DNA of 32,000 nt from Xylanibacter ruminicola 23 (GCF_000025925.1 NC_014033.1:2430001-2462000); one strand, 5' to 3'; shown: positions 1 through 20,038, numbered from the stretch's first letter. The notes: generated by a model not told the origin, from the sequence alone. A program made the numbers and translations.

Positions 1-1037
1 CCTCTAGTAATGTTCATTCCTCCTTCTTCAATCTCACCAAGAGCACCTTCCGTTCCACACCAAGGGCATGCCTGAGTATTACCATCAGAACACATGATAT
101 TACCGCAATCGCATACTACTACTCCATATTGGTTGCCACAACACGGACATGTTGGCACTCCACGCAGTGACATCGTATTAATATTTTGGTTAGATTTACC
201 TTCACTCAAACTGTTGTAAATTTCCTCGTCAACAGGAAATGCACCAACGAGTTTATAATCAGTCGCCTTTATTCCAAGGCTTTCCAATCCGCGAATATCT
301 CCAATACGTTTAGCATATTTTACAAGATATGTTTTCTTTGTGTTTGAACACTTTCCCATAAGAACGGCAAAGTTCTCATCGACAACACACTGTTCTTCTG
401 TATTTACTTTTTCCAGGTTAATGCCATCCATCGGAGCAAGCTGTAAATCATCAATACCAGCATCTGTTACTGAAACGCTACTGGTTTTAATCGATGCTGT
501 CACCCATTTAAAGAAAGCCTTGAACGAATACTCGTCGGTCTCTTTCAATCGTAAAACATTCTCAGTAAGTTTCCCCAATAAATGGGTATCAGCATTATCT
601 CCTAATGAAATACAAACAAGATTGCACTTTTTTTGATATAGCTTTTGCCATCTTTCAATAGCAGGATTGGGATTGTCTGTAGGTGTACCATCTGTAAACA
701 GGAAGATGATTGGTTTCCAGTCTCCTTTCATTTCTGATGTAGTCTTTTGAACAGATTTCTCCATATCATCCATCAAATAATTGAGGGCAGTCCCTAAAGA
801 AGTACCACCACCAATCGGGAATTTTGGAGGATAGAACTTATATAGTTCTGTCAATGGAGATAGGCTCTTGGCCTTACCAGCAAAGGCGATGACGGACACG
901 AAAACCGTTTCAAGAGCATAAGGATCTGTCCTCAATTCCTGAATGATATTCCTCATTCCATTCTCTACTTGTGTGATGGGGTCTCCCACCATTGACTCTG
1001 ATACATCAATCAGAAAATATATTGGTAATCTTCTCAT
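1..1037 (-). CDS. TerY-like von Willebrand factor A (vWA) protein with C-terminal Cys-rich TerY-C-type module. The 3' end runs off the left edge, and the ORF is absent from the supplied ORF track.
   Basis: My own translation from the ATG at 1037..1035 gives MRRLPIYFLIDVSESMVGDPI..ALETVFVSVIAFAGKA..GDWKPIIFLFTDGTPTD..FKAFFKWVTASI. It stays open to base 1. The DxSxS MIDAS start and overall layout match the two vWA paralogs at 1045-1680 and 2245-2883. The last ~45 aa read CPCCGNQYGVVVCDCGNIMCSDGNTQACPWCG. Confidence 0.8.
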   Translation of the reverse strand, partial: MRRLPIYFLIDVSESMVGDPITQVENGMRNIIQELRTDPYALETVFVSVIAFAGKAKSLSPLTELYKFYPPKFPIGGGTSLGTALNYLMDDMEKSVQKTTSEMKGDWKPIIFLFTDGTPTDNPNPAIERWQKLYQKKCNLVCISLGDNADTHLLGKLTENVLRLKETDEYSFKAFFKWVTASIKTSSVSVTDAGIDDLQLAPMDGINLEKVNTEEQCVVDENFAVLMGKCSNTKKTYLVKYAKRIGDIRGLESLGIKATDYKLVGAFPVDEEIYNSLSEGKSNQNINTMSLRGVPTCPCCGNQYGVVVCDCGNIMCSDGNTQACPWCGTEGALGEIEEGGMNITR

Positions 1038-1044
1038 ATTTCTA

Positions 1045-1680
1045 CTAAATTACGATATTAACTTCTTCTGGTGGTCCGGGCAGTTCTATTGAATCTGTAG
1101 TACCAACGCTCTTTCCACCAAGTCCAATAACATCAGATACCCATACGAAGAACTTCTTAAAAGAAGTAGCATCCATAGTGTCAAGTCTGAATACTTGGTC
1201 TGTCAACTGCTGAAGTGGTTCAACCTTCGCTTTTGGGCCTGCTGCACAAGCTACTATACTAGCAAAATTTAAACTCTTTACTTTCGGAATAATTTGATTA
1301 TAATCTTGTACATCACTGGGTTTTCCATCTGTCAATATAAACAAAAGTGGACGCCAATCACCCTTTTGTTCTGGAGTACCCCTTTTTACCTCCACAGCAA
1401 TTTTGTCACAAAGCATTTTTAAAGCTTTACCAAGGTGCGTCGGACCTGTATCTGGAGTCAGGATATCAGGCATTTGAAGGTTTTCGAGCTCCGTAAGAGG
1501 TAGAACTTGACTTACTTCTCTATCAAAGGTAATTATACTAATACATACTGTTTCAAGAGCATATGGGTCTTGGCGCAAGGTTGCAACCATATCAGCTAGC
1601 CCTACCTTAACACTCTCTATTGGTTCACCTTTCATAGAACCACTAGTATCAATCAATATATAAACTGGTAAATGTCTCAT
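1045..1680 (-). CDS. TerY-like vWA domain protein (paralog 2)
   Basis: 211-aa ORF MRHLPVYILIDTSGSMKGEPIESV.. with a DxSxS MIDAS motif, ..GDWRPLLFILTDGKPSD.. and FKKFFVWVSDVI. It lies 7 nt upstream of the next vWA gene. Its ATG overlaps the stop of the 4-TM gene (ATGA at 1680-1677). Confidence 0.85.
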   Translation of the reverse strand: MRHLPVYILIDTSGSMKGEPIESVKVGLADMVATLRQDPYALETVCISIITFDREVSQVLPLTELENLQMPDILTPDTGPTHLGKALKMLCDKIAVEVKRGTPEQKGDWRPLLFILTDGKPSDVQDYNQIIPKVKSLNFASIVACAAGPKAKVEPLQQLTDQVFRLDTMDATSFKKFFVWVSDVIGLGGKSVGTTDSIELPGPPEEVNIVI

Positions 1681-2180
1681 GAGTCTGTTTTATAACATAT
1701 TGCAAAGCCCTCATAGGCAGCAATTCCATAAACAATTAAACTAAAGAAATCAAAATCAGCAAATGCAATTTCAAAGAAATAAGTATTGTCAATCATTGTT
1801 AATGTCTCGAAATAGGCAAGTCCTTCTTCCTGGGCTATAAAACCAACATTCGTGAAGTAATCTCCCAATACACAAGACAATAAGGCAAAAAATCCGCCAA
1901 TGAGTGAAATAGGGATTGTTCGACCTCTCCCTATAAGATGAACTACATAACCAACAGCAAAACCCGCCAAAATACCCATAATCATCCATTGCTTTTGAGC
2001 ATTTACCGTAATCAAAGCCCAGAGACTGGCAATTAAAACACTAGACAATAGTCCGGCAATAATTGCAAAAACGAGATTTCCTTCCTGCTGGGGTATATAA
2101 TTGCTGTTATCTTCAGCATTAGAAGGGACTTCCTGCCCCTCAATAACTCTATTTAGTTTTTCAAAATCGTAATTTGCCAT
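1677..2180 (-). CDS. Small integral membrane protein (about 4 predicted TM helices), uncharacterised, embedded between vWA paralogs
   Basis: 167-aa ORF with a polar N-terminus (~35 aa) followed by hydrophobic stretches (LVFAIIAGLLSSVLIASLWALI, WMIMGILAGFAVGYVVHLI, ISLIGGFFALLSCVLGDYF, FFSLIVYGIAAYEGFAI). A 4-nt ATGA overlap with the downstream vWA gene suggests translational coupling. Confidence 0.7.
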   Translation of the reverse strand: MANYDFEKLNRVIEGQEVPSNAEDNSNYIPQQEGNLVFAIIAGLLSSVLIASLWALITVNAQKQWMIMGILAGFAVGYVVHLIGRGRTIPISLIGGFFALLSCVLGDYFTNVGFIAQEEGLAYFETLTMIDNTYFFEIAFADFDFFSLIVYGIAAYEGFAICYKTDS

Positions 2181-2244
2181 ATTTCCTAATCTTTAACAAT
2201 ATGAGGATGTAACAATAGCAGGCACACCCTCATATCATCTATTA

Positions 2245-2883
2245 TCATACAACAATGTTTACCTCTGGAGGTGGCGGTGGCAACTCGCTCATAGTAGCAA
2301 CATCACCGTGAGTATCCTCAACTTTTTGGCTTCCAGTGCTGATACTTGCACTTACCCACTTGAAGAATGCCTTGATTGTAGCACTATCTGCAGTGTCAAG
2401 TTGTACCACATTCTCTGTAATTTGCTTCAAAGTGTTGGTGTTTGCACCTTGACCAGCAGCACAAGCGACCACCATACCAAACTTACGCTTTCTAAACTCA
2501 TTCAGCCCCTTCTGCAAGTCATCTGTTGGTTCTCCGTCAGTCATAATGAATACGATGGGTTTCCAGTCGCCTTTAACTTCAGCTGTTGTCTTTACAATTT
2601 CTGTATCAACTTTCTGAGCCAGTAGATTCAGCGCCTCGCCTAGGGCTGTACAGCCACTCGCATCAATTACAGGCGGTTGAAACGAAGCCAATTCGGTTAG
2701 CGGAGCTATTTGTTGAGCACTCGAATTGAAGGTAATAATACTAATGTATGCTGTTTCCAAAGCATACGGATCACTTCTCAGTGTTGAGACAAGCGTCTGA
2801 ACGCCATTCTTCACAGCCTCAATAGGTTCACCATACATGGAACCAGAGGTATCAAGCAATAAATAAACAGGTAATCTTCTCAT
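2245..2883 (-). CDS. TerY-like vWA domain protein (paralog 1)
   Basis: 212-aa ORF MRRLPVYLLLDTSGSMYGEPIEAV..ALETAYISIITF..GDWKPIVFIMTDGEPTD..FFKWVSASI. It is collinear with the other two vWA paralogs and starts 12 nt after the upstream TerD gene. Confidence 0.85.
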   Translation of the reverse strand: MRRLPVYLLLDTSGSMYGEPIEAVKNGVQTLVSTLRSDPYALETAYISIITFNSSAQQIAPLTELASFQPPVIDASGCTALGEALNLLAQKVDTEIVKTTAEVKGDWKPIVFIMTDGEPTDDLQKGLNEFRKRKFGMVVACAAGQGANTNTLKQITENVVQLDTADSATIKAFFKWVSASISTGSQKVEDTHGDVATMSELPPPPPEVNIVV

Positions 2884-2895
2884 ATTTTGTTGTCT

Positions 2896-3561
2896 TTATT
2901 TGTTATAATCCTTAGCAACTCTCGCAATCGTAAGCGCGATTGAGCGGTCTTCAAAAGCATCTCCAATAGCAGCAAACTTCCACTCGCCATTTCGACGATA
3001 GAGTTTACCCATTACTAAAGCCCTCTTTCCTACACAGTCAGTTTTAGTTGCAACGTCATATTGCGCAAAAACTTCTTTCACCTTGGTTGGTGTTCCCTCA
3101 TACATACGAATAGATGCGTAGGGTATGCCTGAGAAATCTCCCTGATAATCATTGTTGTTATATATGTTCAAGAAGAAAACAATTGAGTTAACATTACTGC
3201 TTACACGAGCAAGGTCAACTGTAATAATCTCATTATCCAAGCCATCATCACCATCTTGATCTCCGGTAAGGTCATCACCTGTATGATGAAGTGCACGGTC
3301 ATTTGAATCAAGCTTACCTTGGGGAAGTCCTATTTTTCCCAAATTATATAAGGGAGACCAAATGTGATCGACAACTTCTCCTTTTTCATTGAATAACAAG
3401 CAACTCAAGTCTAAGTCAACATCAACAGTAGTTGTTGTCATTCCAAAGAAAGCTTTCTTAGTAATAGCTCCCCAGTTACATCCAACACAAAAGTTGGTTA
3501 GTTTTGCACCACTTCCTTTTTCAAGGTTGATGCGTTGTCCTTTTTCAAGTTTAATAGCCAT
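2896..3561 (-). CDS. TerD-family protein (longer paralog)
   Basis: 221-aa ORF MAIKLEKGQRINLEKG.. with DVDLDLSCLLF, the acidic Ca-site-like motif HHTGDDLTGDQDGDDGLDNEIITVDL, and the C-terminal RRNGEWKFAAIG typical of TerD/TerE/TerZ proteins. Confidence 0.85.
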   Translation of the reverse strand: MAIKLEKGQRINLEKGSGAKLTNFCVGCNWGAITKKAFFGMTTTTVDVDLDLSCLLFNEKGEVVDHIWSPLYNLGKIGLPQGKLDSNDRALHHTGDDLTGDQDGDDGLDNEIITVDLARVSSNVNSIVFFLNIYNNNDYQGDFSGIPYASIRMYEGTPTKVKEVFAQYDVATKTDCVGKRALVMGKLYRRNGEWKFAAIGDAFEDRSIALTIARVAKDYNK

Positions 3562-3572
3562 ATCCGTTTATT

Positions 3573-4208
3573 TTAGTCCTTACTACCTGGTTTATAAGTA
3601 AATCCCCAACCATATTGACGATCACAGTCACTGTGACTATCGTGGAAAGTTACAAGTTTCTTTACCGTAATAGAATTATCTCCTCCAAAATCAAGTTCAG
3701 CTATGGCACAAAAGCGTTTGCTGCTTGATTGTTGTCCCATTTCTACAATAATATCTTCATTGCCTGGTACCTTGACCTTTACAACTGCATTTGTTTCTGC
3801 CCACTTTGCAACACCTTCAAAGATGAATGTGTAAACTACGATTCGTTTAATGTCATTCACGCCTTTAGGATTGACGAGGATGGTTTCTCCAGAGGACGAA
3901 CCTCCGCCACGATCATCACCTTGATGCCATATAAAAGGCTTTTGGTCATAACAACCTTGACGCGTTACTTGATGACGGTTACCACCACGATTACGTGAGA
4001 ACTGTAGACCATCAATAAGCATTTTAGACCCATCACGCAGTTCATAGAAACAACCTAAATCAAGGTCAACCGGATTTCCAAACATCTGCTTTAAAAAGCC
4101 TCCTTTACTCCAGTCGAGATTAATAATAATCTCACCAGAGAAAGAGGAGCAACCTTTTTCAAGATTAATCCGATGCTGGTCACCTGACTTTTCGAGGACA
4201 ATAGCCAT
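3573..4208 (-). CDS. Divergent TerD-fold paralog (TerA/TerZ-like) with a degenerate acidic motif
   Basis: 211-aa ORF MAIVLEKSGDQHRINLEKG.. with VDLDLGCFYEL. The equivalent of the Ca motif reads HQGDDRGGGSSSGETILVNP. The gene sits between two canonical TerD genes with gaps of 11 nt and 2 nt. Confidence 0.7.
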   Translation of the reverse strand: MAIVLEKSGDQHRINLEKGCSSFSGEIIINLDWSKGGFLKQMFGNPVDLDLGCFYELRDGSKMLIDGLQFSRNRGGNRHQVTRQGCYDQKPFIWHQGDDRGGGSSSGETILVNPKGVNDIKRIVVYTFIFEGVAKWAETNAVVKVKVPGNEDIIVEMGQQSSSKRFCAIAELDFGGDNSITVKKLVTFHDSHSDCDRQYGWGFTYKPGSKD

Positions 4209-4210
4209 AA

Positions 4211-4768
4211 TTACTGGTATTTATTAACCAAAGCCTGTAAACCACCCTTATTACCGATTCCCATTGCTTCAAACTTCCATTCACCATTACGACGATACAG
4301 TCGGCCAAATTCCACGGCAGTTTCAATCGAGAAGTCTTCATCAAGATCATAACGAGCGATTTCCTCATTAGTGATCGAGTTATAAATTCGGATATAAGAG
4401 TTTCTCACTTGCCCAAAGTTCTGCTTTCTTTCTTCAGCCTTGTAGATAGTGGCTGTGAAGATAATTTCCTGAACTTGAGGGTCTACTTTAGTTAGATCAA
4501 CATTCAGAGTTTCATCATCGCCACCATCGCTATTACCACCAGTAAGATCGTCACCAGTAGATTCAACCGCTCCATCAGGAGACTTTTGGTTGTTGTAAAA
4601 TACAAAGTACTCGTCCTTAGGAAGTTTTTTGTTTGCTCCCAGCATAAACGCCGAAGCATCCAAATCAAAATCAAAACCGGTACCTTCGTTGGGGTCCCAT
4701 CCGAGTCCTACACTAACTTTTGACAGACCAATTTCAATACGCTGTCCTTTTTCCAAAGATATTGCCAT
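4211..4768 (-). CDS. terD: TerD-family protein (canonical ~190-aa form)
   Basis: 185-aa ORF MAISLEKGQRIEI..GLGWDP..FDFDLDASAFML..STGDDLTGGNSDGGDDETLNVDL..FGRLYRRNGEWKFEAMG. This is the textbook TerD/TerE pattern. Confidence 0.9.
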   Translation of the reverse strand: MAISLEKGQRIEIGLSKVSVGLGWDPNEGTGFDFDLDASAFMLGANKKLPKDEYFVFYNNQKSPDGAVESTGDDLTGGNSDGGDDETLNVDLTKVDPQVQEIIFTATIYKAEERKQNFGQVRNSYIRIYNSITNEEIARYDLDEDFSIETAVEFGRLYRRNGEWKFEAMGIGNKGGLQALVNKYQ

Positions 4769-4804
4769 AATTACTTTATTATATTATAAATGTTAATTAT
4801 GGTG

Positions 4805-4812
4805 CAAATATA
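4805..4812 (-). promoter_or_regulatory. Bacteroidetes -7 box TATATTTG (TAnnTTTG) upstream of the first TerD gene
   Basis: The plus strand reads caaatata, so the minus strand reads TATATTTG, about 37 nt upstream of the ATG at 4768. Confidence 0.5.
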
Positions 4813-4891
4813 AATCAATTAATTATAAACATCTGGATTGTTGCAACCTTGCAAGTGTATATCAATAGATTGAAGAAGAATCCATGCAATA

Positions 4892-6289
4892 TTACATAGC
4901 AAGCAATCGACCCCAGAAATCAGACTCTTCGAAAGAACATACTCTTGCTGTTACAGGATCATAACACAAGCAGAGTTCTTTTGGAATAGTCACACAATAA
5001 TTACCGAACATATTACGCTGAACCAAATAGTCATCAGCCTGATTTAGCAAGTCGCCTAACTGTCGAAATTGTCTTTTAATAAGACTAATCATAGGTAGAC
5101 GATTCTCTGGCAACTCTATTTGAGGGGCTTTTGTACGTTCTCCACCAAAATTTTCATATATTATTTCATATTTTCGCTGGATAGCGGCAATACGATGTTT
5201 GTACTTATCTAAAGACTTCACCCCGTTAGGCTTATTGAAATTAATACCTCCACTTGATGACTCTAATAAAAAAAGTGCATACAAGGCTTTTTCGCGACGA
5301 TGTAAACCAGTAATTTTACTATCCGCTTCTGGCAAAAGAATATCTCCATGCATCAAATCTATTACAACACTACTTCTTATTCCTTTTTTATATATAAAAG
5401 AATCAAATATTTGCTTATAAAAACCATTATATACAAAACGTTGTTTCCCCTCGTAAACAGGATTTAGAATACGAGGTTTATACATTGAAACAAAGGTATC
5501 AACGAAACGACGAACCGCAACCAATGCTTCTTCTTCAATAGACATTACTAGGAAGTTATCAATATTTCTACCTTTAATAGAGGATATGCCTATTCTGAAC
5601 ATAATCGATGGAAGAGAATGAGCAAGACCGTCCATTTTCATCTTTCCAACGATCTCGTTCTTACAGAAATCAGATGTACTAAGTGCCATTAATTGCTTTG
5701 CAAAAAGTTCTATCTGAGCTGTTGTTGCAGAAGGGTAAAGAAAGGAAATAAGCGTATGCAAATCTTCTTGTGCTAGAGCCCTATAATGTTCACCAACTTT
5801 TGGAATATAAACAAAGTTAAATCCAATAAGTCGCAACTCATTTAATATTTCACGATAGTGAACCAATATCTCACGATTTGTTTCTTTGTAATATTCACCT
5901 TCAACATATAATACTTGTGAGTTATCAAGCTTAATATTCTCAGGTAGTTCAACGGAATAAACCATAGAATTATTTGGAAATCTTTCAGAAAGACATGACA
6001 CTATCGCAATTAAAAACAAAGCTTCCTCCCTCGAACACGCATTATCAGAAAGCACCATACCTTTAAAGTCACCCCATAAATCTTGTTTTAAGCTAACGGA
6101 GGCATCATTTAAAGTTTGAAAAGCCTCTGCTAAAGTTATCGTTTCTGCGACAACCTCATCCTCGTGCTTAATATTATATTTTTGACGAATGCAATTAAGA
6201 TATACAATTTCTTGCATATCAATGATGGCATCAGCTTTTACCATGTCAGAAACAATACGTATAATACTTGCCCTTTCTAATTGCTTCAC
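4892..6289 (-). CDS. TerB-like N-terminal domain fused to an uncharacterised C-terminal region of about 360 aa
   Basis: 465-aa ORF. The N-terminal ~105 aa show the two-half TerB-type pattern (IIRIVSDMVKADAIIDMQEIVYL ... MVLSDNACSREEALFLIAIVSCL). I do not recognise the remainder. The called start is GTG at 6289..6287 and the next in-frame ATG is at codon 16, so the 5' end is uncertain. Confidence 0.6.
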   Translation of the reverse strand: MKQLERASIIRIVSDMVKADAIIDMQEIVYLNCIRQKYNIKHEDEVVAETITLAEAFQTLNDASVSLKQDLWGDFKGMVLSDNACSREEALFLIAIVSCLSERFPNNSMVYSVELPENIKLDNSQVLYVEGEYYKETNREILVHYREILNELRLIGFNFVYIPKVGEHYRALAQEDLHTLISFLYPSATTAQIELFAKQLMALSTSDFCKNEIVGKMKMDGLAHSLPSIMFRIGISSIKGRNIDNFLVMSIEEEALVAVRRFVDTFVSMYKPRILNPVYEGKQRFVYNGFYKQIFDSFIYKKGIRSSVVIDLMHGDILLPEADSKITGLHRREKALYALFLLESSSGGINFNKPNGVKSLDKYKHRIAAIQRKYEIIYENFGGERTKAPQIELPENRLPMISLIKRQFRQLGDLLNQADDYLVQRNMFGNYCVTIPKELCLCYDPVTARVCSFEESDFWGRLLAM

Positions 6290-6294
6290 ATTAG

Positions 6295-6680
6295 TATACT
6301 ATCATCCAAGGAGAATCCCAGAACTTGGCGATTTTCTGTAATTGGTTACTACATATAAAAGAAGCGTGGGAATCTCCTTGTTACTCGTCCCACCCTCCGA
6401 GGCTCTGGCATCGCCCTAACAGTCAGAACGAGCAACGCCGAAGCCCACGCCGATATGTATATAAACACACCTTTCTGCTTGAAGCCAATAATGGCTGTCA
6501 GCATAACCGATGTAGGATATTACATACCCATGGGCGTCATTGTTGCTTTGATTCCTCGACTGTTAGTTTGGAACTGCCAGATTCCGAAAGGTCAAGTACA
6601 AAGCGTCAAGTAACGCCTATCCTATATATAGGTCTCCACCCAGAAACAGACCCACCCGCAAGCGGGGCTTCGGTATGAAG
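6295..6680 (-). ncRNA. Candidate structured RNA: a long 5' leader of the TerB-like gene or an independent ncRNA (class unknown)
   Basis: A GC-rich island sits in an AT-rich intergenic region, starting ~7 nt downstream of a minus-strand TAnnTTTG box. It contains a 9-bp long-range inverted repeat (6438-6446 ccgaagccc / 6665-6673 gggcttcgg) and a 14-bp stem with one mismatch (6307-6320 / 6367-6380). Local hairpins have CUUG/UUCG-type loops on the minus strand. The ORFs overlapping the region (6325-6678 +, 6606-6938 -) do not look protein-like. Confidence 0.35.
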
Positions 6681-6686
6681 ACACTG

Positions 6687-6694
6687 CAAAGATA
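6687..6694 (-). promoter_or_regulatory. -7 box TATCTTTG with a TTTG -33 element (6718..6715), driving the GC-rich leader/ncRNA
   Basis: Plus-strand caaagata equals minus-strand TATCTTTG. A caaa at 6715-6718 gives a TTTG 20 nt upstream, which matches the Bacteroides consensus spacing. Confidence 0.55.
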
Positions 6695-6833
6695 ACGAGT
6701 TTTTCTGAACCAAACAAACTTTTACGAGAATTTTTGGAGAAATGTGTATTTCACAAGGCTTGTGGTGCACAATCTGACATAAATTTATGCTGCAAAAAAA
6801 TGAGATTACTATTGGTGTTTTCAAATTTATATG

Positions 6834-6841
6834 TATATTTG
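6834..6841 (+). promoter_or_regulatory. -7 box TATATTTG for the divergent 302-aa gene
   Basis: TATATTTG lies 20 nt upstream of the ATG at 6862. Confidence 0.55.
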
Positions 6842-6861
6842 CGCAATAAAACTGTTTAGGG

Positions 6862-7770
6862 ATGGAAAGAATACATTCGGCAAAGGAGCTTTTTCTCAAT
6901 ACACTCATTAATATGGGTATCAAGTATGAGAGCCACAACTACGAAGATACCATCTGGTTTGACTACCAGGATATGGACTTTGAAGCAGAAGAAGATAAGG
7001 GAGGTAGGTACATAACCCTGGAGTATATGGACTGGAAAGAACTTCACGATGCCGAGGAAGCCTTAAGGATGCGGAGGATTATCAACAAGGTGAACAGGAA
7101 CAGTGATGTAGTTATCTCAACAACGGTAAAATTTACTTATTATCGCAGAAAAATACTATTCATAGAGGAGATTCCTAATATCGAGGACTACCTGCGTTCT
7201 GAACTTCAAGAGTTGATACGTATTTACGAGATGGTGAACGAAGCTCTACAGAAAGATAACGAGAATGAGAAGTCAGGCAAATGGCAACCTATAGACATCG
7301 AATCTACCCAAACCAAAGACTTGTTTATTAAAACCATCAGGGAAATGGGGTGCGATTACGAACCATGGAAGGACGAGGAATCGCGTTGTGAAAGCATCGT
7401 TTTTGATTACCAGACGGAAACGTATCGTGCAACCTTTTTCGAAGTAACAAAGAAAGTGTTATTAGAAAACCACTATAGCCTATACAATGTGGCGCTAAAC
7501 GACATGGATAAAGTAAACCAACTACGCGAGGTTGTAAACAAAGTGAATCAGGAGCATGATGCCGTTACTGTATACACGATCGACTGCGTTACTAATAAGA
7601 TGTATGCCGAAGCCAGTCATACCGTGCCCTTCATGGCAGAAATACCCAATTTACTTACTTATCTTCATTCCATACTGAACGACCTCTATTTGGTGCGGAT
7701 GGACATTAAATGCGAAATGGAAGCTGATGAGATTGAAGAACAAAGGATTATGGATCGAGAGGCCAATTAA
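6862..7770 (+). CDS. Uncharacterised protein made of two tandem homologous ~140-aa domains (possibly a YbjN / secretion-chaperone-like fold)
   Basis: 302-aa ORF with a clear internal repeat. AKELFLNTLINMGIKYE matches TKDLFIKTIREMGCDYE. IWFDYQDMDF matches IVFDYQTETY. RRIINKVNRNSDVV matches REVVNKVNQEHDAV. FIEEIPNIEDYL matches FMAEIPNLLTYL. Confidence 0.7.
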   Translation: MERIHSAKELFLNTLINMGIKYESHNYEDTIWFDYQDMDFEAEEDKGGRYITLEYMDWKELHDAEEALRMRRIINKVNRNSDVVISTTVKFTYYRRKILFIEEIPNIEDYLRSELQELIRIYEMVNEALQKDNENEKSGKWQPIDIESTQTKDLFIKTIREMGCDYEPWKDEESRCESIVFDYQTETYRATFFEVTKKVLLENHYSLYNVALNDMDKVNQLREVVNKVNQEHDAVTVYTIDCVTNKMYAEASHTVPFMAEIPNLLTYLHSILNDLYLVRMDIKCEMEADEIEEQRIMDREAN

Positions 7771-7867
7771 ACATAAGAATCTCCACTTCTTTCAGCGTCT
7801 CGTCAGCTCGATCAAGTCTGTACTGTACAAGCGCATCGCGGCTTGGGGCATCAAGAGTTTCGTTCAT
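7748..7867 (-). pseudogene. Truncated HEPN toxin remnant (39 codons) downstream of the MNT gene
   Basis: The ATG at 7867 overlaps the MNT stop (ATGA). Translation gives MNETLDAPSRDALVQYRLDRADETLKEVEIL, which looks like a HEPN N-terminal helix, followed by unrelated MFNWPLDP and a stop. The tail overlaps the 3' end of the convergent 6862-7770 gene. Confidence 0.6.
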
Positions 7868-8178
7868 AACGTAATTCCTTCGTTCATTACATTAATATAG
7901 AAAGGTGTTTTGAATGGGCGATTCTCCCATTGCCTGCGAAGCATAATCATAGGACTGATGAGAACACCTGTGCTGAGTTCAAGATCATATAGGGCTCCTG
8001 ACACAGCTTCCTCTCTTTTTAAGTCTCTAGCTTCCCCCTCAAGTAGAACGAGCACATCAATATCGCTATCGGCACGAGCATCACCTCGTGCTTCAGACCC
8101 ATACAGAATTGCCGTTGCCGTGGGCTCGGTCTTTTTGATGGTCTGTTTTATTCGTTCTACAATCTCTGGTCTTCGCAT
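7864..8178 (-). CDS. MNT-type nucleotidyltransferase (antitoxin-like partner of HEPN)
   Basis: MRRPEIVERIKQTIK..ILYGSEARGDARADSDIDVLVLL.. carries the GSxxRG...DxD Pol-beta-type NTase motif. I moved the start to the ATG at 8178, because the track's 157-aa version adds an S/P-rich extension that overlaps the next gene. Confidence 0.8.
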   Translation of the reverse strand: MRRPEIVERIKQTIKKTEPTATAILYGSEARGDARADSDIDVLVLLEGEARDLKREEAVSGALYDLELSTGVLISPMIMLRRQWENRPFKTPFYINVMNEGITL

Positions 8179-8197
8179 TACCTTTATATTTCTGCGG

Positions 8198-8205
8198 CAA
8201 AGATA
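8198..8205 (-). promoter_or_regulatory. -7 box TATCTTTG upstream of the MNT gene
   Basis: Plus-strand caaagata lies 20 nt upstream of the ATG at 8178. Confidence 0.5.
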
Positions 8206-8245
8206 AGAAGAAAAACGTGAACTTTGCAAATATTTAGGGAAAAAT

Positions 8246-8620
8246 TTACCAACCTGCGGGGAGGACGATATTGGGGACTTCGTGAGCTTTGGCGAAGAGG
8301 GGGGAGATTTCCTCGTTGGTGAAGCCAGCGATGCCACAACCTACGCGGGTTACTAAGAACGTGAGGTCGGGACGGGTTTTGGCGAATTCGATGAATTCAT
8401 CTACATAGGGTTTGATGGCATCAACACCGCCATGCATGGTGGGTATGCCATAGCTCTGCCCTTGCAGACCAACGCCCTGCCCCCAGATAGCACCAAACTT
8501 ACGATAGGCCAACAAGGCAGCCCCGCCACCATGCGCCCCAGCCAGGTTGCTACCAAACACAAACACCTCGTTCTCACCAAGCTCCGTTATCCGCTCCGGC
8601 GTCACTCTTTTCTGTTCCAT
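8246..8620 (-). CDS. Conserved small protein with a GSNxxGxHGxGAA motif (phage-associated family, function unknown)
   Basis: 124-aa ORF ..ENEVFVFGSNLAGAHGGGAALLAYRKFGAIWGQGVGLQGQSYGIPT.. I recall this motif from a widespread phage/prophage-associated family. The exact family name is not verified. Confidence 0.6.
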   Translation of the reverse strand: MEQKRVTPERITELGENEVFVFGSNLAGAHGGGAALLAYRKFGAIWGQGVGLQGQSYGIPTMHGGVDAIKPYVDEFIEFAKTRPDLTFLVTRVGCGIAGFTNEEISPLFAKAHEVPNIVLPAGW

Positions 8621-8647
8621 ATACTTGTATTTAGAAAGTCATCGCTG

Positions 8648-8655
8648 CAAATATA
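8648..8655 (-). promoter_or_regulatory. -7 box TATATTTG for the 8246-8620 gene
   Basis: Plus-strand caaatata lies 28 nt upstream of the ATG at 8620. Confidence 0.5.
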
Positions 8656-8686
8656 CAACTTTTTCTGGAATATAAACAAAAAGGCA

Positions 8687-8723
8687 CAAAAAAAATCGCA
8701 ACAGGTTTTTGGCCTATTGCGAT
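8687..8723 (-). terminator. Rho-independent terminator after the small peptide gene
   Basis: The minus strand reads ATCGCAATAGGCCAAAAACCTGTTGCGAT, with 7+3 bp of stem, followed by T8. Confidence 0.6.
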
Positions 8724-8745
8724 TTGATACTTGGGGGTGGATGCT

Positions 8746-8847
8746 CTACGATCCTACACAGCTGGTGGCGCCGAGGGCGGTTACGATGGCTGTAGCGATG
8801 GATGCAATCATCTGGACGATGAACTTCAGTGTTTCTTTCTTTGTCAT
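8746..8847 (-). CDS. 33-aa hydrophobic peptide of the Bacteroidales 'smalltalk' type (not in the ORF track)
   Basis: My own translation gives MTKKETLKFIVQMIASIATAIVTALGATSCVGS followed by a stop. It has a basic N-terminus, one TM-like helix and a C-terminal SC motif. It sits beside an HU-like gene, as I recall for this family. Confidence 0.5.
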   Translation of the reverse strand: MTKKETLKFIVQMIASIATAIVTALGATSCVGS

Positions 8848-8888
8848 AATGGTTTAGGTTATATGGTTAATACTTTGTGTTTCATGGT

Positions 8889-8917
8889 AAAAATGGTGGG
8901 GCTTGTGCCCCAACCAT
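8889..8917 (-). terminator. Rho-independent terminator immediately after the HU-like gene
   Basis: The minus strand reads ATGGTTGGGGCACAAGCCCCACCAT followed by TTTTT. The stem starts at the stop codon. Confidence 0.55.
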
Positions 8918-9468
8918 TAGTCGCCAATGGGCTCGTGGCCACCGCCGCCGGTATTGCCGCCACCGCCAGTGTTTCCACCGCCACCGGTATTGCCACCCTG
9001 AGTGCCGCCACCGGTATTACCTGGCTTATCATCCTCGATAAGCTGGCCAGCAAACGCCTCGGCATTTACAAACTCGGCCTTCTTGATGAACTCACGGCTT
9101 GAGATGTTGGTCTCGGCCTCCTGATCGGGCAGGAATCGGATGTGGAGGGCCTTCAGGTTCTTCTGAGGTGAAAAGTCCTCCTTCTTCAGAGCACCACCCT
9201 TCTCGTTCTCCAAGGTGGTAAAGAAGATGCCCAGACCGTCGATCTTGACGCGCTTGGAGTTCAGGAGCATCTCCAACAGACAACTACGGAACTTCTCCAG
9301 CACTCCGAACACCACGTCGGGAGTGTAGATACTGCCGTGCTCGGCGATGTGGTTGGCCATCTTACGAGTGTTCAGCGTCTCGACGGTCTTGCTGTGGGCA
9401 AACCACTTACCGAAAATCTTCGAATTCTTGATGTTGTTTTGCTTCAACAGATAAAAGATCTTTGCCAT
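8917..9468 (-). CDS. Bacteroidetes HU-related DNA-binding protein with a C-terminal Gly/Asn/Thr repeat tail
   Basis: 183-aa ORF MAKIFYLLKQNNIKNSKIFGKWFAH..TRKMANHIAEHGSIYT..VKIDGLGIF.. matches the pattern of the HU_rel family. The tail reads GNTGGGTQGGNTGGGGNTGGGGNTGGGG. Confidence 0.8.
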   Translation of the reverse strand: MAKIFYLLKQNNIKNSKIFGKWFAHSKTVETLNTRKMANHIAEHGSIYTPDVVFGVLEKFRSCLLEMLLNSKRVKIDGLGIFFTTLENEKGGALKKEDFSPQKNLKALHIRFLPDQEAETNISSREFIKKAEFVNAEAFAGQLIEDDKPGNTGGGTQGGNTGGGGNTGGGGNTGGGGHEPIGD

Positions 9469-9514
9469 AATGTGTAAAAGGTTTTAAATGGGTTAATTAT
9501 TAAGTTTGACGATG

Positions 9515-9522
9515 CAAAGGTA
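9515..9522 (-). promoter_or_regulatory. -7 box TACCTTTG for the HU-like gene
   Basis: Plus-strand caaaggta, about 46 nt upstream of the ATG at 9468. It is followed by GCATCGTCAAA, the same sequence that follows the box at 11734. Confidence 0.55.
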
Positions 9523-9674
9523 CTACTATAGAATGTAATCTACAAACTTTTTAGGCCTCCACTTAGTTAAACAGTGTTAACAAAAATCAGCTACCACTTC
9601 ATCGCTCACAATCCGTAACTTCGTGATTTACGATCTAACGGATATCGATGAGATAAGTGCCACCTCGTTCCAGG

Positions 9675-9848
9675 CACGCAGTATCACAGTAACATAACCG
9701 ATTTTGCCTGTTCTGCAGAAAAACTGGCTATATTGAATATTATATATATTAAATATATATAATATTTATAATGCTATAATTATATATATTACCACCTATC
9801 GCCGCCTAACCTACTCGCAGTATCCTTATGTTACTGTGATACTGCGTG
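9675..9848. repeat. 174-bp element bounded by perfect 23-bp inverted repeats (CACGCAGTATCACAGTAACATAA). It could be MITE-like, an invertible segment, or an origin-like structure.
   Basis: 9675-9697 is the exact reverse complement of 9826-9848. The interior is AT-rich and includes a 31-bp AT-only palindrome at 9736-9766. An extra partial forward copy (cgcagtatc) lies at 9816-9824. Confidence 0.75.
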
Positions 9849-9908
9849 GAAAAAGATATATAAGAACAAAAATCGCGCATAAATCTTGTATATCTAAGAA
9901 TTTTGCAA

Positions 9909-9916
9909 TACCTTTG
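9909..9916 (+). promoter_or_regulatory. -7 box TACCTTTG only 4 nt before the ATG at 9921
   Basis: The sequence is TACCTTTGcaatATG. This implies a leaderless or near-leaderless mRNA. Confidence 0.45.
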
Positions 9917-9920
9917 CAAT

Positions 9921-10811
9921 ATGGAATATTACATATGCCCATTCAGGATAGCAAGCAGCGAGAAATGGTACGCCCAGCCCGATGGTTTTCAACCACAGGA
10001 AGTCCTGGCGACAGTGACGCGAGATGACTTCCTACGACAGAACAAAAAATTACTATTCACTGACAAAAGCGGCAACCACATCTATTCGCACAAATACATA
10101 TACCAACCCAAGGATGGCATAGCCGTGCTTAAACTAGCAAACAGGTACGTAGATAGTGATGACGAAGAATTCTGGAAAAGACGGCCTTGGGAAGACCGAT
10201 TCTTTACAGTTATCGTCATAGTCAGTAGAAAGGATGGTACTTGTTTCTATGTTGAGGATAACGAGCGTGCATTTGATAGGGTTGAAGACGTGGTGAAGAT
10301 ACTGTGCAGAGGGCTTAACCATAGTCTGTCGAGTCATCAATTATTTATAGGTTCTGATTACAACTTCATCAAGCAAACCGATAACTTTGCCCTGATGTCG
10401 GCTTGTGCTATTATCAACCAGCAACTTGAAGACTCACTCAACCTTCAGTTTGGTACATGCGACGCGATGAAACATGAGTATGACGAGAATGCCCTATTAG
10501 CAGCACAACTGTTTACCAGCGCCTTAACCGACCAACGCAAAGCCAGCATGGTTATATCGTTGCTCTACGAACTTACCAAAGGCAGGAAAGACAGGAAAGC
10601 GCTGATGTGCGGACTACGAGCGGCTATGGATGCGGGGGTGATAGTAAAACCAAGCTACAACGATTTTATTACGGTGTTTAACTGTGGTCATCTGGTATCA
10701 AAAGAGCAGTATAGCACTTATACCAACCCAAATTATCACGGATACAAGAAATACGAACTCTACAAAAACGCCTACATCAGATTCAAACAGATTAAGGAAG
10801 CAGTCATCTAA
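9921..10811 (+). CDS. Hypothetical protein (296 aa from the ATG at 9921; the track start is 9903)
   Basis: Long ORF with protein-like composition (MEYYICPFRIASSEKWYAQPDG...). I recognise no family. I prefer the 9921 start because the -7 box overlaps the 9903 start. Confidence 0.6.
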   Translation: MEYYICPFRIASSEKWYAQPDGFQPQEVLATVTRDDFLRQNKKLLFTDKSGNHIYSHKYIYQPKDGIAVLKLANRYVDSDDEEFWKRRPWEDRFFTVIVIVSRKDGTCFYVEDNERAFDRVEDVVKILCRGLNHSLSSHQLFIGSDYNFIKQTDNFALMSACAIINQQLEDSLNLQFGTCDAMKHEYDENALLAAQLFTSALTDQRKASMVISLLYELTKGRKDRKALMCGLRAAMDAGVIVKPSYNDFITVFNCGHLVSKEQYSTYTNPNYHGYKKYELYKNAYIRFKQIKEAVI

Positions 10812-10919
10812 ACACACCAAAACGCTTAACTTTTCTGAACTTATCACAACTATTCTGGTCAAATCGGCACTCGGCCGAAATAATCAGTTTTTTTATTTGC
10901 GCATATCAGCCGGATGCTA

Positions 10920-10927
10920 TATTTTTG
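10920..10927 (+). promoter_or_regulatory. -7 box TATTTTTG upstream of the 11003 gene
   Basis: The match to TAnnTTTG lies 75 nt upstream of the ATG at 11003. Confidence 0.4.
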
Positions 10928-11002
10928 CGGCCGCTGAGCACAACAATAATTAAAAACCTGAGACAGGCATGGGCCCATTCTGTTTCTTAAACTTTAACAA
11001 CA

Positions 11003-11650
11003 ATGAAGCAGAACAACAATGAAGTGCAGTACATTTGGCACGACGGGGCTACTATCCCCGAAGACCTGCTGATTAGCATGGCTAAAACAGCAGGATGTTA
11101 CGAATCGGCTAAGCCTTATCTATTTTCGTTGATGGCGCATGGCCTTAACCATGGTATCCGCAACTATATATATAAGGTAAACGAGATACGTGATTATTAC
11201 CACGTGGTACCTATCCCCATAGCCAAGGAGATGGGACAGGGCACTACCTGCGACCAAACCCATCACGCCGATGTGGCAAGGAAGCGATACAAAGCCATGA
11301 ACCAGGAAGGTCGGGAACTGGTAGTAACCAACAGTCTGAAGCTACTGCTAACCAATCACCGCAACCTATTCTGCTCGAAAACCGATTGGGCGGGTATCTA
11401 CCTGGTGATCAAGGACAGACTGAATGGACGAATAAGCAAAACCCGATTTACACGACTGATGATGAACCTTACCCGCGACTGGTGGCCCGGGGAGCTACAG
11501 ATAGGCGAACGTACACTGAGTAACTTTGGTAGATGTGTGACCTACGAAGACCGACTGGAGGCTTACTACGACATGGATAATAACCCATGGGCCGAACTTT
11601 GCGACACCTATTGGAACCTACTGATGCAACAGATTCTGACGCATAACTGA
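11003..11650 (+). CDS. Hypothetical protein (215 aa)
   Basis: ORF with protein-like composition. No motif recognised. Confidence 0.55.
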   Translation: MKQNNNEVQYIWHDGATIPEDLLISMAKTAGCYESAKPYLFSLMAHGLNHGIRNYIYKVNEIRDYYHVVPIPIAKEMGQGTTCDQTHHADVARKRYKAMNQEGRELVVTNSLKLLLTNHRNLFCSKTDWAGIYLVIKDRLNGRISKTRFTRLMMNLTRDWWPGELQIGERTLSNFGRCVTYEDRLEAYYDMDNNPWAELCDTYWNLLMQQILTHN

Positions 11651-11704
11651 CGCTGTTTATCGCCCATCGACGCAAATAACGACGCGATTCTGACGCACTG
11701 ACGC
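11632..11704. repeat. Cluster of six GACGC cores, including a 12-nt direct repeat GATTCTGACGCA (11632-11643 and 11686-11697)
   Basis: GACGC occurs at 11638, 11649, 11669, 11681, 11692 and 11700. The cluster spans the stop of the 11003-11650 gene and lies ~30 nt upstream of the next promoter box. Confidence 0.6.
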
Positions 11705-11733
11705 ATCAGCCCCACCACCTATTTATTTCATCA

Positions 11734-11741
11734 TATCTTTG
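11734..11741 (+). promoter_or_regulatory. -7 box TATCTTTG for the 11773 gene
   Basis: The sequence is TATCTTTGCATCGTCAAA, 31 nt upstream of the ATG at 11773. Confidence 0.55.
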
Positions 11742-11772
11742 CATCGTCAAAAAGAAATTAAAGCGAACAAGT

Positions 11773-12099
11773 ATGAGAAAAATTGAAGAAAAAATCACGG
11801 TTACAACCAAGCCCAACGGCTATGCGTTGACAGTAAACGAGAAGGAGTATTTATACTTTAACACGTTAGATCTGGTAAAGGGTGTTTGCATTCATGTGGG
11901 ATTGGGACGAAAGAGTCCGACCACCAAGTATGGACGCGATGCGATACTGAAGGCTATGGGCGATGGAAGTCTGGAGCGCAAGCTACAGAAAGAGGTAAAC
12001 GAACTGAAATCACAAGTGTTTAATTTAAAGAACGCGCTGCATGAAAGCAAAGAAGAACAAAAGGGGAATAACGGTCAAGAAGGGCTGTATCTCATGTAA
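11773..12099 (+). CDS. Hypothetical protein (108 aa) with a coiled-coil-like C-terminus
   Basis: ORF directly downstream of a promoter box. The C-terminal half is rich in K/E/L/Q (LERKLQKEVNELKSQVFNLKNALHESKEEQ). Confidence 0.5.
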   Translation: MRKIEEKITVTTKPNGYALTVNEKEYLYFNTLDLVKGVCIHVGLGRKSPTTKYGRDAILKAMGDGSLERKLQKEVNELKSQVFNLKNALHESKEEQKGNNGQEGLYLM

Positions 12100-12376
12100 G
12101 TGGAAGATGTACGATGGTGAGGGCAACCGCATCTGCACCCTGTTCCGTAACAACGAGAAAGGTTACTGCAACAAATGGCGCATGACCCATGCCCTGAGGA
12201 ACGCCGGTACACCATATGGCAACATTCATACCAAACCCTATCTGCGCTATGCCATGGAGATAGCGCAGGACGAGCAAAGGTGGATAGCCCAAGGTTACAA
12301 CATCACCCCCACCCCGATCGAAGAGATGCGAAATAACTATTTAAAAGAACATAAAACTTATAACATCGATTTTTAA
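12041..12376 (+). CDS. Hypothetical Cys-containing small protein (111 aa; start uncertain)
   Basis: The ORF overlaps the previous gene by 59 nt if the ATG at 12041 is used. The alternative ATG at 12107 removes the CxxC of CISCKWKMYDGEGNRIC...YC. Confidence 0.45.
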   Translation: MKAKKNKRGITVKKGCISCKWKMYDGEGNRICTLFRNNEKGYCNKWRMTHALRNAGTPYGNIHTKPYLRYAMEIAQDEQRWIAQGYNITPTPIEEMRNNYLKEHKTYNIDF

Positions 12377-12383
12377 CTAACTT

Positions 12384-12728
12384 ATGAAAAAGAAACTTAT
12401 CAACATTCAGGACATCACCGTAGTTATGAACCGTGCATCGAGAGGCCTTACCATTGAGGGCGTTATGTTTATCGACAAGCACACACACCATCTGACGTTC
12501 AAGCCTTACAACCTGGCCAAGTATCAGCCTGGCTACTACCAGCGAACCAAACCCAAACTGATTAAGAAACTGCCATGGGGAGCACTTAAACAGAGTATTC
12601 GCAACAACATTCTGCGACTGAGTGTGCCACAGGCGTTGGGAACAGCGCAAACCATAGCCATCTTTAACAACCATGTGGCCCAGGCCAACGATGCGCTGAT
12701 TGATTTAGAACTCAAAGAGTTCTGTTGA
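12384..12728 (+). CDS. Hypothetical protein (114 aa)
   Basis: The ORF starts 7 nt after the previous stop and lies directly upstream of the primase-like gene. No motif recognised. Confidence 0.5.
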   Translation: MKKKLINIQDITVVMNRASRGLTIEGVMFIDKHTHHLTFKPYNLAKYQPGYYQRTKPKLIKKLPWGALKQSIRNNILRLSVPQALGTAQTIAIFNNHVAQANDALIDLELKEFC

Positions 12729-12732
12729 CTTT

Positions 12733-12788
12733 AAACATGAAACATGAAACATTAAAGATTAAAGATTAAAGATTAAAGATTAAACATG
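12733..12788 (+). repeat. Eight tandem heptamers AAA(C/G)AT(G/T); the last unit contains the start codon of the primase-like gene
   Basis: The units read aaacatg, aaacatg, aaacatt, aaagatt x4, aaacatg. The ATG at 12786-12788 is the end of unit 8. Confidence 0.9.
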
Positions 12789-15215: not shown

Positions 15216-15216
15216 T

Positions 15217-15234
15217 CGCAGTATCACAGTAACA
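15217..15234 (+). repeat. Third copy (18 bp, direct orientation) of the 9675-9697 repeat core, CGCAGTATCACAGTAACA
   Basis: Exact match to 9677-9694. It begins 2 nt after the primase-like stop codon. Confidence 0.85.
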
Positions 15235-15242
15235 AATACATT

Positions 15243-15270
15243 AAACATTAAAGATTAAACATTAAACATT
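15243..15270 (+). repeat. Four tandem heptamers AAA(C/G)ATT immediately upstream of the M15 peptidase gene
   Basis: The units read aaacatt, aaagatt, aaacatt, aaacatt, followed by att and the ATG at 15274. The unit is the same as in the array at 12733-12788. Confidence 0.9.
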
Positions 15271-15273
15271 ATT

Positions 15274-16960
<1,687 letters not shown>

Positions 16961-17029
16961 TTACTTGTTTGACACCCGAGAGGGCAAAAAGTAAAATGCC
17001 GCCTGCGATAGTTAATGAAGATTAACAAA

Positions 17030-17060
17030 TAAAAAAGAGCACCCTGATGCAGGATGCTCT
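17030..17060 (-). terminator. Rho-independent terminator after the acyl-CoA dehydrogenase gene
   Basis: The minus strand reads AGAGCATCCTGCATCAGGGTGCTCT followed by TTTTTT, about 25 nt after the stop at 17086. Confidence 0.65.
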
Positions 17061-17085
17061 ATTTATAATAGCGTTTAGGGATTGC

Positions 17086-18813: not shown

Positions 18814-18819
18814 AATTTC

Positions 18820-19005: not shown

Positions 19006-19006
19006 C

Positions 19007-20032: not shown

Positions 20033-20038
20033 ATCTCG

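Follow-up and report, generated by a model that had tools for sequence, protein, structure and literature searches.

A TerC-less, Ca2+ pump-linked variant of the ter gene cluster in Xylanibacter ruminicola and other Bacteroidales, with a structured RNA at its upstream end

The analysed sequence, here termed the window, is a 32,000-nt stretch of Xylanibacter ruminicola 23 DNA (GCF_000025925.1, NC_014033.1:2430001-2462000). It begins with a block of eight co-directional open reading frames (ORFs), all on the minus strand and running from position 6289 to 1, several of which encode proteins of the Ter families. This raises the question of whether the block is an unrecognised Ter architecture, as a sequence-only reading of the window had proposed, or a form of the classical ter locus, and what function such a cluster might serve. 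The comparisons described below show that the block is the front two-thirds, i.e. the promoter-proximal part, of a ter locus, and that this locus is a TerC-less, Ca2+ pump-linked variant of the known ter system and not an unrecognised architecture. Its real departures from the classical form are the lack of TerC, TerW and the biosynthetic module, the presence of a TerB-like fusion protein, and a Ca2+ ATPase as the recurring neighbour of that fusion. Judged from motifs and gene neighbourhoods, the compact Bacteroidales cluster probably, but with considerable room for doubt, constitutes a module for sensing Ca2+ or other divalent cations and for phospho-signalling. The eight genes, in gene order, are the following.

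4892..6289, minus strand: 465-aa protein, putative TerB-like domain plus globular module, GTG start
4211..4768, minus strand: TerD, 185 aa (Pfam TerD)
3573..4208, minus strand: TerA-like, divergent TerD-fold protein, 211 aa (plasmid TerA by blastp, and hhalign)
2896..3561, minus strand: TerD paralogue, 221 aa (Pfam TerD)
2245..2883, minus strand: von Willebrand factor A (vWA) protein, TerY1-type, 212 aa (Pfam VWA)
1677..2180, minus strand: 167-aa protein with four hydrophobic segments (hydropathy)
1045..1680, minus strand: vWA protein, TerY2-type, 211 aa (Pfam VWA)
1..1037, minus strand: vWA + TerY-C protein, TerY3 counterpart (Pfam VWA and TerY_C)

Recomputed ORFs and spacings bear out the tight packing described earlier. 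The intergenic gaps are 123, 2, 11, 12, 64, -4 (an ATGA overlap) and 7 nt, that is, -4 to 64 nt with a single gap of 123 nt. The last gene, and the locus itself, run past the left edge of the window, a point missed in the sequence-only reading. The continuation was followed in L001, 20.6 kb of X. ruminicola sequence (GCA_019973335.1) that is 100% identical to the window over its first 10 kb; L001 coordinates equal 11681 minus the window coordinate. The full vWA/TerY-C gene is at L001 10644-11690 and encodes 348 aa, of which the window edge removes the last 3 residues. At a spacing of -4 nt is the gene for a 459-aa PP2C phosphatase (L001 11687-13066; PP2C_2, E 6e-40), and 3 nt after it that for a 492-aa Ser/Thr kinase (L001 13070-14548; Pkinase, E 7e-9). 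Inspection of the kinase translation reveals a CxxxxC...CxxC motif (CQNSKC...CPFC) after the kinase domain, as expected of a C-terminal zinc ribbon. As the vWA/TerY-C, PP2C and kinase genes are adjacent and co-directional, they form a complete TerY-P triad. The earlier hunch that a triad might be involved is thus upheld, its phosphatase and kinase lying just past the window edge. TerY-P triads are hypothesised to act as a metal-sensing phosphorylation switch, and in CoCoNuT systems the kinase is fused to a C-terminal zinc ribbon (PMC11090510; triads are also treated in PMC4978471). In one Bacteroidales metagenome-assembled genome (MAG), two tandem copies of the TerY-P kinase are found (L062 4583-7541), 73% and 67% identical to that of X. 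ruminicola.

Beyond the kinase are genes for a 134-aa protein, a DUF805 protein and a PrsW-type intramembrane protease, small ORFs, and then a 969-aa P-type ATPase. The ATPase passes the equivalog cut-off of TIGR01517, the PMCA-type Ca2+ ATPase model (611 vs 507 bits, scored on the 969-aa L003 orthologue, which is 99% identical to the L001 copy). The 134-aa protein (L001 14553-14957) displays a weak, sub-threshold match to FERM_C, a PH-like domain (E 3e-4). As the sequence-only reading had stated for the block, there is no TerC: among the genes of the window block and those of L001 (20.6 kb) none matches Pfam TerC, and plasmid TerC has no blastp match to the locus proteins. TerW and the ATP-grasp/PRTase/aldolase module are likewise absent from the 20.6 kb of L001.

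The relationship to classical ter loci is direct. Homologues of the vWA/TerY-C protein are found on more than 2,300 enterobacterial plasmids, and the three vWA places are present in all of the enterobacterial records listed (11/11). On the Escherichia coli IncHI2 plasmid NZ_AP027784.1 the order is terW - VWA - TerD family - VWA - vWA/TerY-C - PP2C - kinase, and this set adjoins the ATP-grasp/PRTase/aldolase module and the divergent terZ-terA-terB-terC-terD-terE genes. By blastp, the plasmid proteins pair with those of X. ruminicola as follows.

First plasmid VWA with the 212-aa vWA protein: 69% identity
Second plasmid VWA with the 211-aa vWA protein: 50% identity
Plasmid TerY-C protein with the vWA/TerY-C protein: 42% identity
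Plasmid PP2C with the L001 PP2C: 37% identity
Plasmid kinase with the L001 kinase: 59% identity
Plasmid TerD/TerE with the 185-aa TerD: 50% identity
Plasmid TerA with the 211-aa protein: 37% identity

Plasmid TerB, TerC and TerW find no blastp match in this locus. Since the plasmid genes pair one to one, a triplicated vWA component with a Cys-rich last copy is canonical. The vWA arrangement that the sequence-only reading did not recognise is present on the IncHI2 plasmids, which carry the same vWA-TerY-C-PP2C-kinase set at 37-69% identity. Among source annotations, five proteins that were looked up (ADE..., GJG... and WP_... accessions, including the 465-, 211- and 167-aa proteins) are labelled TerD family, 'stress protein', TerY or 'hypothetical'; the label 'tellurium resistance protein TerD/TerY/TerA' is also used.

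Three TerD paralogues had been proposed. Pfam supports two of these, the 185-aa protein (TerD, E 2e-74) and the 221-aa protein (TerD, E 3e-35). The former is the counterpart of plasmid TerD/TerE; the latter is about 28-32% identical to plasmid TerZ, TerX and TerD. Both have an intact acidic Ca2+-type loop (GDDLTGGNSDGGDDE in the 185-aa protein, GDDLTGDQDGDDGLDNE in the 221-aa paralogue). The third, of 211 aa, is Pfam-negative and is placed by blastp and hhalign: it is called a TerA-like, divergent TerD-fold protein because its family matches the TerD profile over the first 130 residues (hhalign probability 94%, E 9e-8) and because of its identity to plasmid TerA (E 5e-34). Orthologues of this protein align with a mean column identity of 73%. 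Its acidic loop is degenerate (GDDRGGGSSSGE) compared with GDDLTG..D..DDE in the two Pfam-positive paralogues. Six Cys and His residues are invariant in the family (C86, H95, C167, H189, H192 and C195, which include a TFHDxHxxCD motif), and this set suggests a different metal site, possibly for Zn.

All three vWA proteins retain the metal ion-dependent adhesion site (MIDAS) motif DxSxS and the TDG motif. The 212-aa protein (Pfam VWA, E 8e-15) and the 211-aa protein (E 4e-13) both display the MIDAS sequence DTSGS, and the third has a VWA domain (E 1e-13) and a TerY_C domain (E 7e-49) whose tail contains 9 Cys. The description of three vWA copies, the last with a Cys-rich TerY-C tail, is therefore accurate. 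Profile searches as a whole support TerD twice, VWA three times and TerY_C once, but not TerB on the 465-aa protein itself. The 465-, 211- and 167-aa proteins have no Pfam match at E <= 10, PDB sequence searches with the 465- and 211-aa proteins gave chance-level matches only, and PADLOC and NCBIfam scans of all eight proteins returned nothing useful.

The 465-aa protein, named 'hypothetical protein' in the sources, had been described as a TerB fusion. An AlphaFold model built on 29 homologues has a pLDDT of 88.6, and its residues 1-104 match PDB 2h5n in Foldseek (probability 1.0, target TM 0.66), which we take to be a TerB-like fold. At the sequence level the family profile scores only E 0.06 against 2h5n, Pfam TerB (PF05099) matches 4/29 homologues (best E 1.3e-5), and the query itself and plasmid TerB yield no Pfam and no blastp match, respectively. 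Sequence support is thus weak; 'TerB fusion' can serve as a description, and residues 1-104 may, on the model, form a TerB-like helical domain. Residues 105-465, the larger part, would then be a conserved globular module of no known kind, for which Foldseek finds nothing in the PDB. A HMMER search with residues 105-465 matched only 221 proteins among 1.84 billion, each of which represents one cluster formed at 50% identity. Nearly all are of 450-480 aa, with the module starting at about residue 105-125, and this single architecture indicates a narrow family. A match of residues 135-196 of the family to an alphavirus macro-domain (E 0.7) had no Foldseek backing and was dropped.

Of 185,579 species representatives covered by a pattern scan, 164 encode the 465-aa family, and nearly all of these are Bacteroidales: Prevotella, Xylanibacter, Segatella, Bacteroides, Phocaeicola, Muribaculaceae and Alloprevotella. 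Bacteroidales-type 465-aa genes are also present in MAGs labelled Lachnospiraceae, Clostridium, Christensenella, Agathobaculum and Oscillibacter (L018, L019, L021, L025, L032, L051 and L070), where mis-binning is probably a better explanation than real transfer. With one genome per species scanned, 62 loci have enough flanking sequence for the arrangement to be read. Three recurrent arrangements were found.

465-aa gene - TerD ... vWA/TerY-C - PP2C - kinase, as in X. ruminicola: 27/62 loci
TerD ... kinase - 465-aa gene - Ca2+ ATPase: 14/62 loci
465-aa gene - Ca2+ ATPase: 10/62 loci

Six of the ten ATPase-only loci show no Ter genes in at least 6 kb upstream. Where loci of the first type could be followed far enough, the ATPase is found again downstream, in seven of them and in X. 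ruminicola. Copy numbers vary across loci, from 2 to 5 TerD paralogues and from 2 to 4 vWA genes, and the block is kept across Bacteroidales genomes.

TerD (91%) and the 212-aa vWA protein are 91-92% identical between Xylanibacter and Bacteroides hominis, and only ~43% of conserved-residue codons are identical in the same comparison. Synonymous sites are thus saturated, so the protein identity reflects purifying selection, and recent horizontal transfer is rejected as its cause. The locus is ~38-40% GC in both genomes, with flanks of ~51%; in the window, the block has 38.5% GC vs 51.1% for positions 12786-29066, in agreement with the earlier remark that it is AT-richer than the core genes on the right. 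As the locus is AT-rich in both genomes, an island-like history is plausible but old. Of the proposed horizontal acquisition, an ancient event may therefore stand, and a recent one is not supported.

The 167-aa gene had been offered as a membrane component in place of TerC. Its four hydrophobic segments and the ATGA overlap of its stop with the start of the next vWA gene are confirmed, and the protein has no Pfam, NCBIfam or PADLOC match. The gene is missing from most orthologous loci. Only L007 and L022 have counterparts, of 141 aa and 26-29% identity, and the 90% cluster of the protein has 8 members. It is a strain-level accessory insert and not part of the core, and because it is unconserved it is ruled out as a TerC replacement. 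In other species, additional genes gather at a hotspot between the second vWA gene and the one for vWA/TerY-C (L007 15178-17503, L008 15439-18319, L022 15983-18794, L023 16274-19070 and L046 7860-9743). They encode multi-transmembrane proteins of 255-305 aa, further copies of vWA and proteins of ~180-220 aa. The situation recalls CoCoNuT systems, where VWA genes flank inserted modules (PMC11090510).

Upstream of the 465-aa gene is a 572-nt region that contains a structured RNA. It and the candidate promoter motifs of the locus are listed here.

6353..6622, minus strand: structured RNA, ~270 nt (covariance model, covariation)
6687..6694, minus strand: TATCTTTG, match to the Bacteroides -7 consensus (TAnnTTTG), ~65 nt upstream of the RNA; consensus match only
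4805..4812, minus strand: TATATTTG, Bacteroides -7-like motif within the 123-nt gap, ~37 nt before the TerD start codon; consensus only

The TATATTTG site is a possible internal promoter ahead of TerD. Calling the 123-nt gap promoter-bearing, as was done earlier, goes too far, since it holds only the TAnnTTTG consensus match and this motif is found 34 times in the window vs 20.7 expected by chance. A sigma-70-type promoter scan, a model unsuited to Bacteroidota, gave no more sites than in shuffled sequence. Expression of the locus probably starts upstream of the RNA, and no convincing flanking inverted repeats of an invertible promoter were found there.

The RNA fold consists of a three-tier 5' hairpin, a small hairpin and a long 3' stem-loop, with a ~13-bp loop-loop pseudoknot that joins the two hairpin domains at their apical loops. 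A GGCGUGG/CCACGCU helix closes the 3' stem-loop, and a U-run comes after it, ~65 nt ahead of the start codon. The corresponding DNA is 75-78% identical in loci of Bacteroides and Phocaeicola, a conservation that is striking because synonymous sites of the neighbouring genes are saturated. With a covariance model (R1), the window RNA scores 230 bits, and 25/83 sources have a match ahead of their 465-aa gene. Among 23 distinct sequences, the 64 base pairs are 94% paired vs 40-47% in slid controls, and 28 pairs have compensatory changes, which RNAalifold also reports on the alignment. An independent set of 81 metagenome sequences, among the matches listed, has the same pairs 90.7% paired, and compensatory changes at 44, the pseudoknot included; one further proposed pseudoknot helix failed on this set (44% of cells paired). 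Part of a long-range fold drawn by RNAalifold is the supported loop-loop pseudoknot; the other part, an alternative pairing of invariant bases without covariation, was set aside. That alternative pairing would compete with the terminator-like stem and is conserved, and as it is made of invariant bases an RNA switch is possible but unproven. A 14-nt inverted repeat (6307-6320 / 6367-6380, 93% complementary) joins the 3' part of the terminal stem and the sequence before the start codon of the 465-aa gene, and similar complementarity is present in alignment rows from other genera; it could couple RNA folding to translation initiation.

At gathering score, neither the window nor any of six further loci matches an Rfam 15 family, and positions 6250-6900 have no match at E <= 1; tRNA and tmRNA searches of the RNA were also negative. 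No description of the RNA was found in the literature covered; the thousands of unnamed candidates of PMC8040213 could include it. Further copies are at L012 9672-9940, L015 452-720, L042 9672-9945 and in L089-L168. In the metagenome matches listed, all of 80 loci carry the full-length RNA (77-245 bits), and 49 of the 70 loci with a called ORF have it co-directional and 40-110 nt downstream of the RNA. In these gut and rumen metagenomes the genes that follow, again among the matches listed, represent over 100 families with no relation to one another, among them NusG/UpxY-like (14/74 copies), LytTR + FHA, DUF4007, DUF2971, GT2 glycosyltransferase and large surface proteins as well as this Ter locus. 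Only 2/80 of these copies precede a 465-aa gene, and a Ter-specific leader is rejected on that count. A fixed-site gene at an insertion hotspot is likewise rejected, as the upstream genes are not conserved either, and a phage-borne element was discarded with only 12 matching IMG/VR contigs, several of them at contig ends.

From its covariation, position and terminator-like 3' stem, the RNA has the structural attributes of a cis-regulatory leader. It resembles known attenuating leaders (riboswitches, processive antitermination elements and the 5' untranslated regions of Bacteroides capsule UpxY operons) in being a structured, covarying RNA before an ORF, with a terminal stem and U-run. It differs from a metabolite riboswitch in that the downstream genes share no single metabolic or transport theme. 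Given its structure, its placement and the diversity of the genes that follow, it looks like a widespread leader RNA of Bacteroidales accessory operons. It is large and well supported, has no Rfam match, and is worth separate study.

Beyond the RNA, a mobile-element-like stretch (6862-15215) borders the locus on the right. It contains a 302-aa ORF without Pfam match (6862-7770, plus strand), an orphan MNT-type nucleotidyltransferase gene with no HEPN partner (7864-8178, minus strand), a gene for a HU-HIG DNA-binding protein with a Gly-rich tail (8917-9468, minus strand) and one for an 809-aa protein with a BT4734-like N-terminal domain (12786-15215, plus strand). The truncated toxin gene that had been placed beside the block was not found: beyond 6289 are the structured RNA, the Pfam-negative ORF and the orphan nucleotidyltransferase.

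How might such a cluster work? TerD binds Ca2+, as seen in the structure of Klebsiella TerD, and in Streptomyces a protein with a TerD domain influences Ca2+ homeostasis; members of the TerC family export divalent metals. In the proposed scheme the TerD paralogues, two with intact acidic loops and one with the Cys/His set, would, on the inner side of the membrane, bind divalent cations or buffer them, and the three vWA proteins would supply MIDAS metal sites. The vWA/TerY-C protein, acting with the kinase and the PP2C, might then translate metal status into reversible phosphorylation that works as a switch. Through the TerB-like fusion this apparatus may be coupled to the P-type Ca2+ exporter, which would take the membrane-transporter place of classical TerC. 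Overall, the cluster would detect an influx of Ca2+ or other divalent cations caused by envelope damage, possibly including phage or toxin attack, and correct it. The scheme is consistent with a report on 'Jug' jumbo phages, which infect Bacteroides and Phocaeicola: their genomes include both terD and a gene for a Ca2+ P-type ATPase, and these copies are phylogenetically closest to Bacteroides, Phocaeicola and Prevotella versions (PMC12880540).

Several observations weigh against this scheme, or against its novelty. The only pointers to Ca2+ as the relevant ion are motif conservation and the neighbouring pump. In X. ruminicola that pump is 3.5 kb downstream of the kinase, with DUF805, PrsW and small ORFs between, and because of this separation co-transcription is only putative; in 11/62 loci the 465-aa gene adjoins neither partner. 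Sequence evidence for the TerB-like assignment is weak, and the C-terminal ~360 residues of the fusion have no detectable relatives of known function. As to novelty, no description of the Bacteroidales TerC-less form was found in the literature covered, outside which falls the 2012 comparative survey of Anantharaman et al., and that survey may already depict this arrangement in Bacteroidetes.

Classical ter clusters confer phage and colicin resistance, and the locus could be primarily anti-phage, an extended TerY-P system in which the triad senses infection and brings about growth arrest or death with TerD and TerB as accessory sensors. This overlaps the cation-sensing reading. A three-gene TerY-P system of vWA, phosphatase and kinase is reported to protect against T7-like phages (Gao 2020, as relayed in PMC7699616 and also in PMC11090510). 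Patchy distribution (the 164 species representatives), AT-richness relative to flanks in two genera, and adjoining genes of mobile-element type (HU-HIG, BT4734-like, orphan MNT nucleotidyltransferase) would fit a defence role; the leader RNA family also precedes genes such as DUF4007, which we take to be defence-associated, and the TerD and Ca2+ ATPase homologues of gut jumbo phages could be counter-measures. However, it is an ion pump that accompanies the 465-aa protein most constantly, and the locus has no obvious effector such as a nuclease, NADase or pore-former. PADLOC-DB 2.0.0 models match neither the PP2C nor any of the eight proteins of the block, and the kinase only weakly and generically (E about 1e-5), so that the PADLOC part of the check proposed earlier came out negative. 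Purifying selection on the core proteins is unusually strong (the 91-92% identity noted above), unlike that on typical fast-evolving defence genes, and the Gao 2020 kinase is described with an OB-fold where the kinase here has a zinc-ribbon motif. A primarily anti-phage function is thus unlikely, but it is the alternative to be taken most seriously.

A determinant of tellurite, metalloid or xenobiotic resistance in the narrow classical sense is suggested by orthology to plasmid ter genes and by the 'tellurium resistance protein' labels of the source annotations. Nevertheless TerC, TerW and a blastp-recognisable classical TerB are missing, as is the ATP-grasp, PRTase and aldolase module; the linkage is to a Ca2+ pump, and tellurite would seem an implausible selective agent in the rumen or gut. 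We regard this as improbable. A chance grouping of eight paralogous genes with no joint function is hardly credible, as dozens of species from several Bacteroidales families, and Enterobacteria too, share the gene set and its order, and the genes are -4 to 64 nt apart. Carriage of the locus by phages, a separate matter, is rejected: GenBank phages contain neither the 465-aa nor the 211-aa family, and IMG/VR has the former in 2 of 2.9 million contigs and the latter in 1 contig. TerD homologues by themselves are common in sequenced phages (255 records). One viral contig (L209 4790-9375, IMGVR_UViG_2660238583_000003) has four TerD-family genes, one of them 37% identical to the TerA-like 211-aa protein, and no vWA, PP2C or kinase genes in the 12.6 kb covered.

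The cation-sensing reading can be extended. Perhaps the RNA represents an undescribed, widespread Bacteroidales cis-regulatory class, a signal-sensing attenuator or a NusG/UpxY-dependent leader, and at the same time the Ter/TerY-P genes, the TerB fusion and the pump form a Ca2+-signalling pathway that jumbo phages counter. This double proposal is speculative and we hold it to be doubtful; were it true, the RNA would tie the Ter/TerY-P locus into one control circuit with capsule, surface-protein and defence-type cassettes. The mode of action of ter clusters has been unsettled for decades. The locus is a naturally minimised ter form in abundant gut and rumen Bacteroidales, with TerD paralogues and the full TerY-P triad kept, and offers a cleaner system for the study of divalent-cation sensing or buffering by Ter proteins and of the kinase and phosphatase targets. 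The link to a Ca2+ exporter also fits the jumbo gut phages that carry TerD and a Ca2+ ATPase.

In comparison with known systems, the closest is the classical IncHI2 ter cluster. The same protein families are present, each best-matching its counterpart, and the second half has a common order, vWA ... vWA - vWA/TerY-C - PP2C - kinase. The X. ruminicola locus differs in having no TerC, TerW or recognisable classical TerB, and no ATP-grasp, PRTase, aldolase and StiP module. Its TerD-family and TerY genes form one co-directional unit, whereas the classical cluster has a divergent terZABCDE operon, and between the first two vWA genes there is the transmembrane gene instead of TerX. Peculiar to the locus here are the TerB-like domain fused to a new ~360-aa module and the link to PrsW, DUF805 and a PMCA-type Ca2+ ATPase.

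The TerY-P triad as treated by Anantharaman, Iyer and Aravind (2012), in CoCoNuT type II/III-A and in a Helicobacter pylori island has the same co-directional vWA, PP2C and zinc-ribbon-motif kinase genes. Here two additional vWA genes precede the triad, and its associates are TerD paralogues and an ion pump, not McrBC-type, helicase, nuclease or type VII secretion-like modules. The anti-phage TerY-P system of Gao 2020 has the same vWA, phosphatase and kinase set; its kinase carries an OB-fold (per PMC11090510), in contrast to the zinc-ribbon motif and unassigned tail found here, and the locus here has at least 10 genes and no PADLOC defence-model match. In the Jug phages, whose description never mentions vWA or kinases (PMC12880540; 0 occurrences), TerD and a Ca2+ P-type ATPase co-occur as they do in the Bacteroidales locus.

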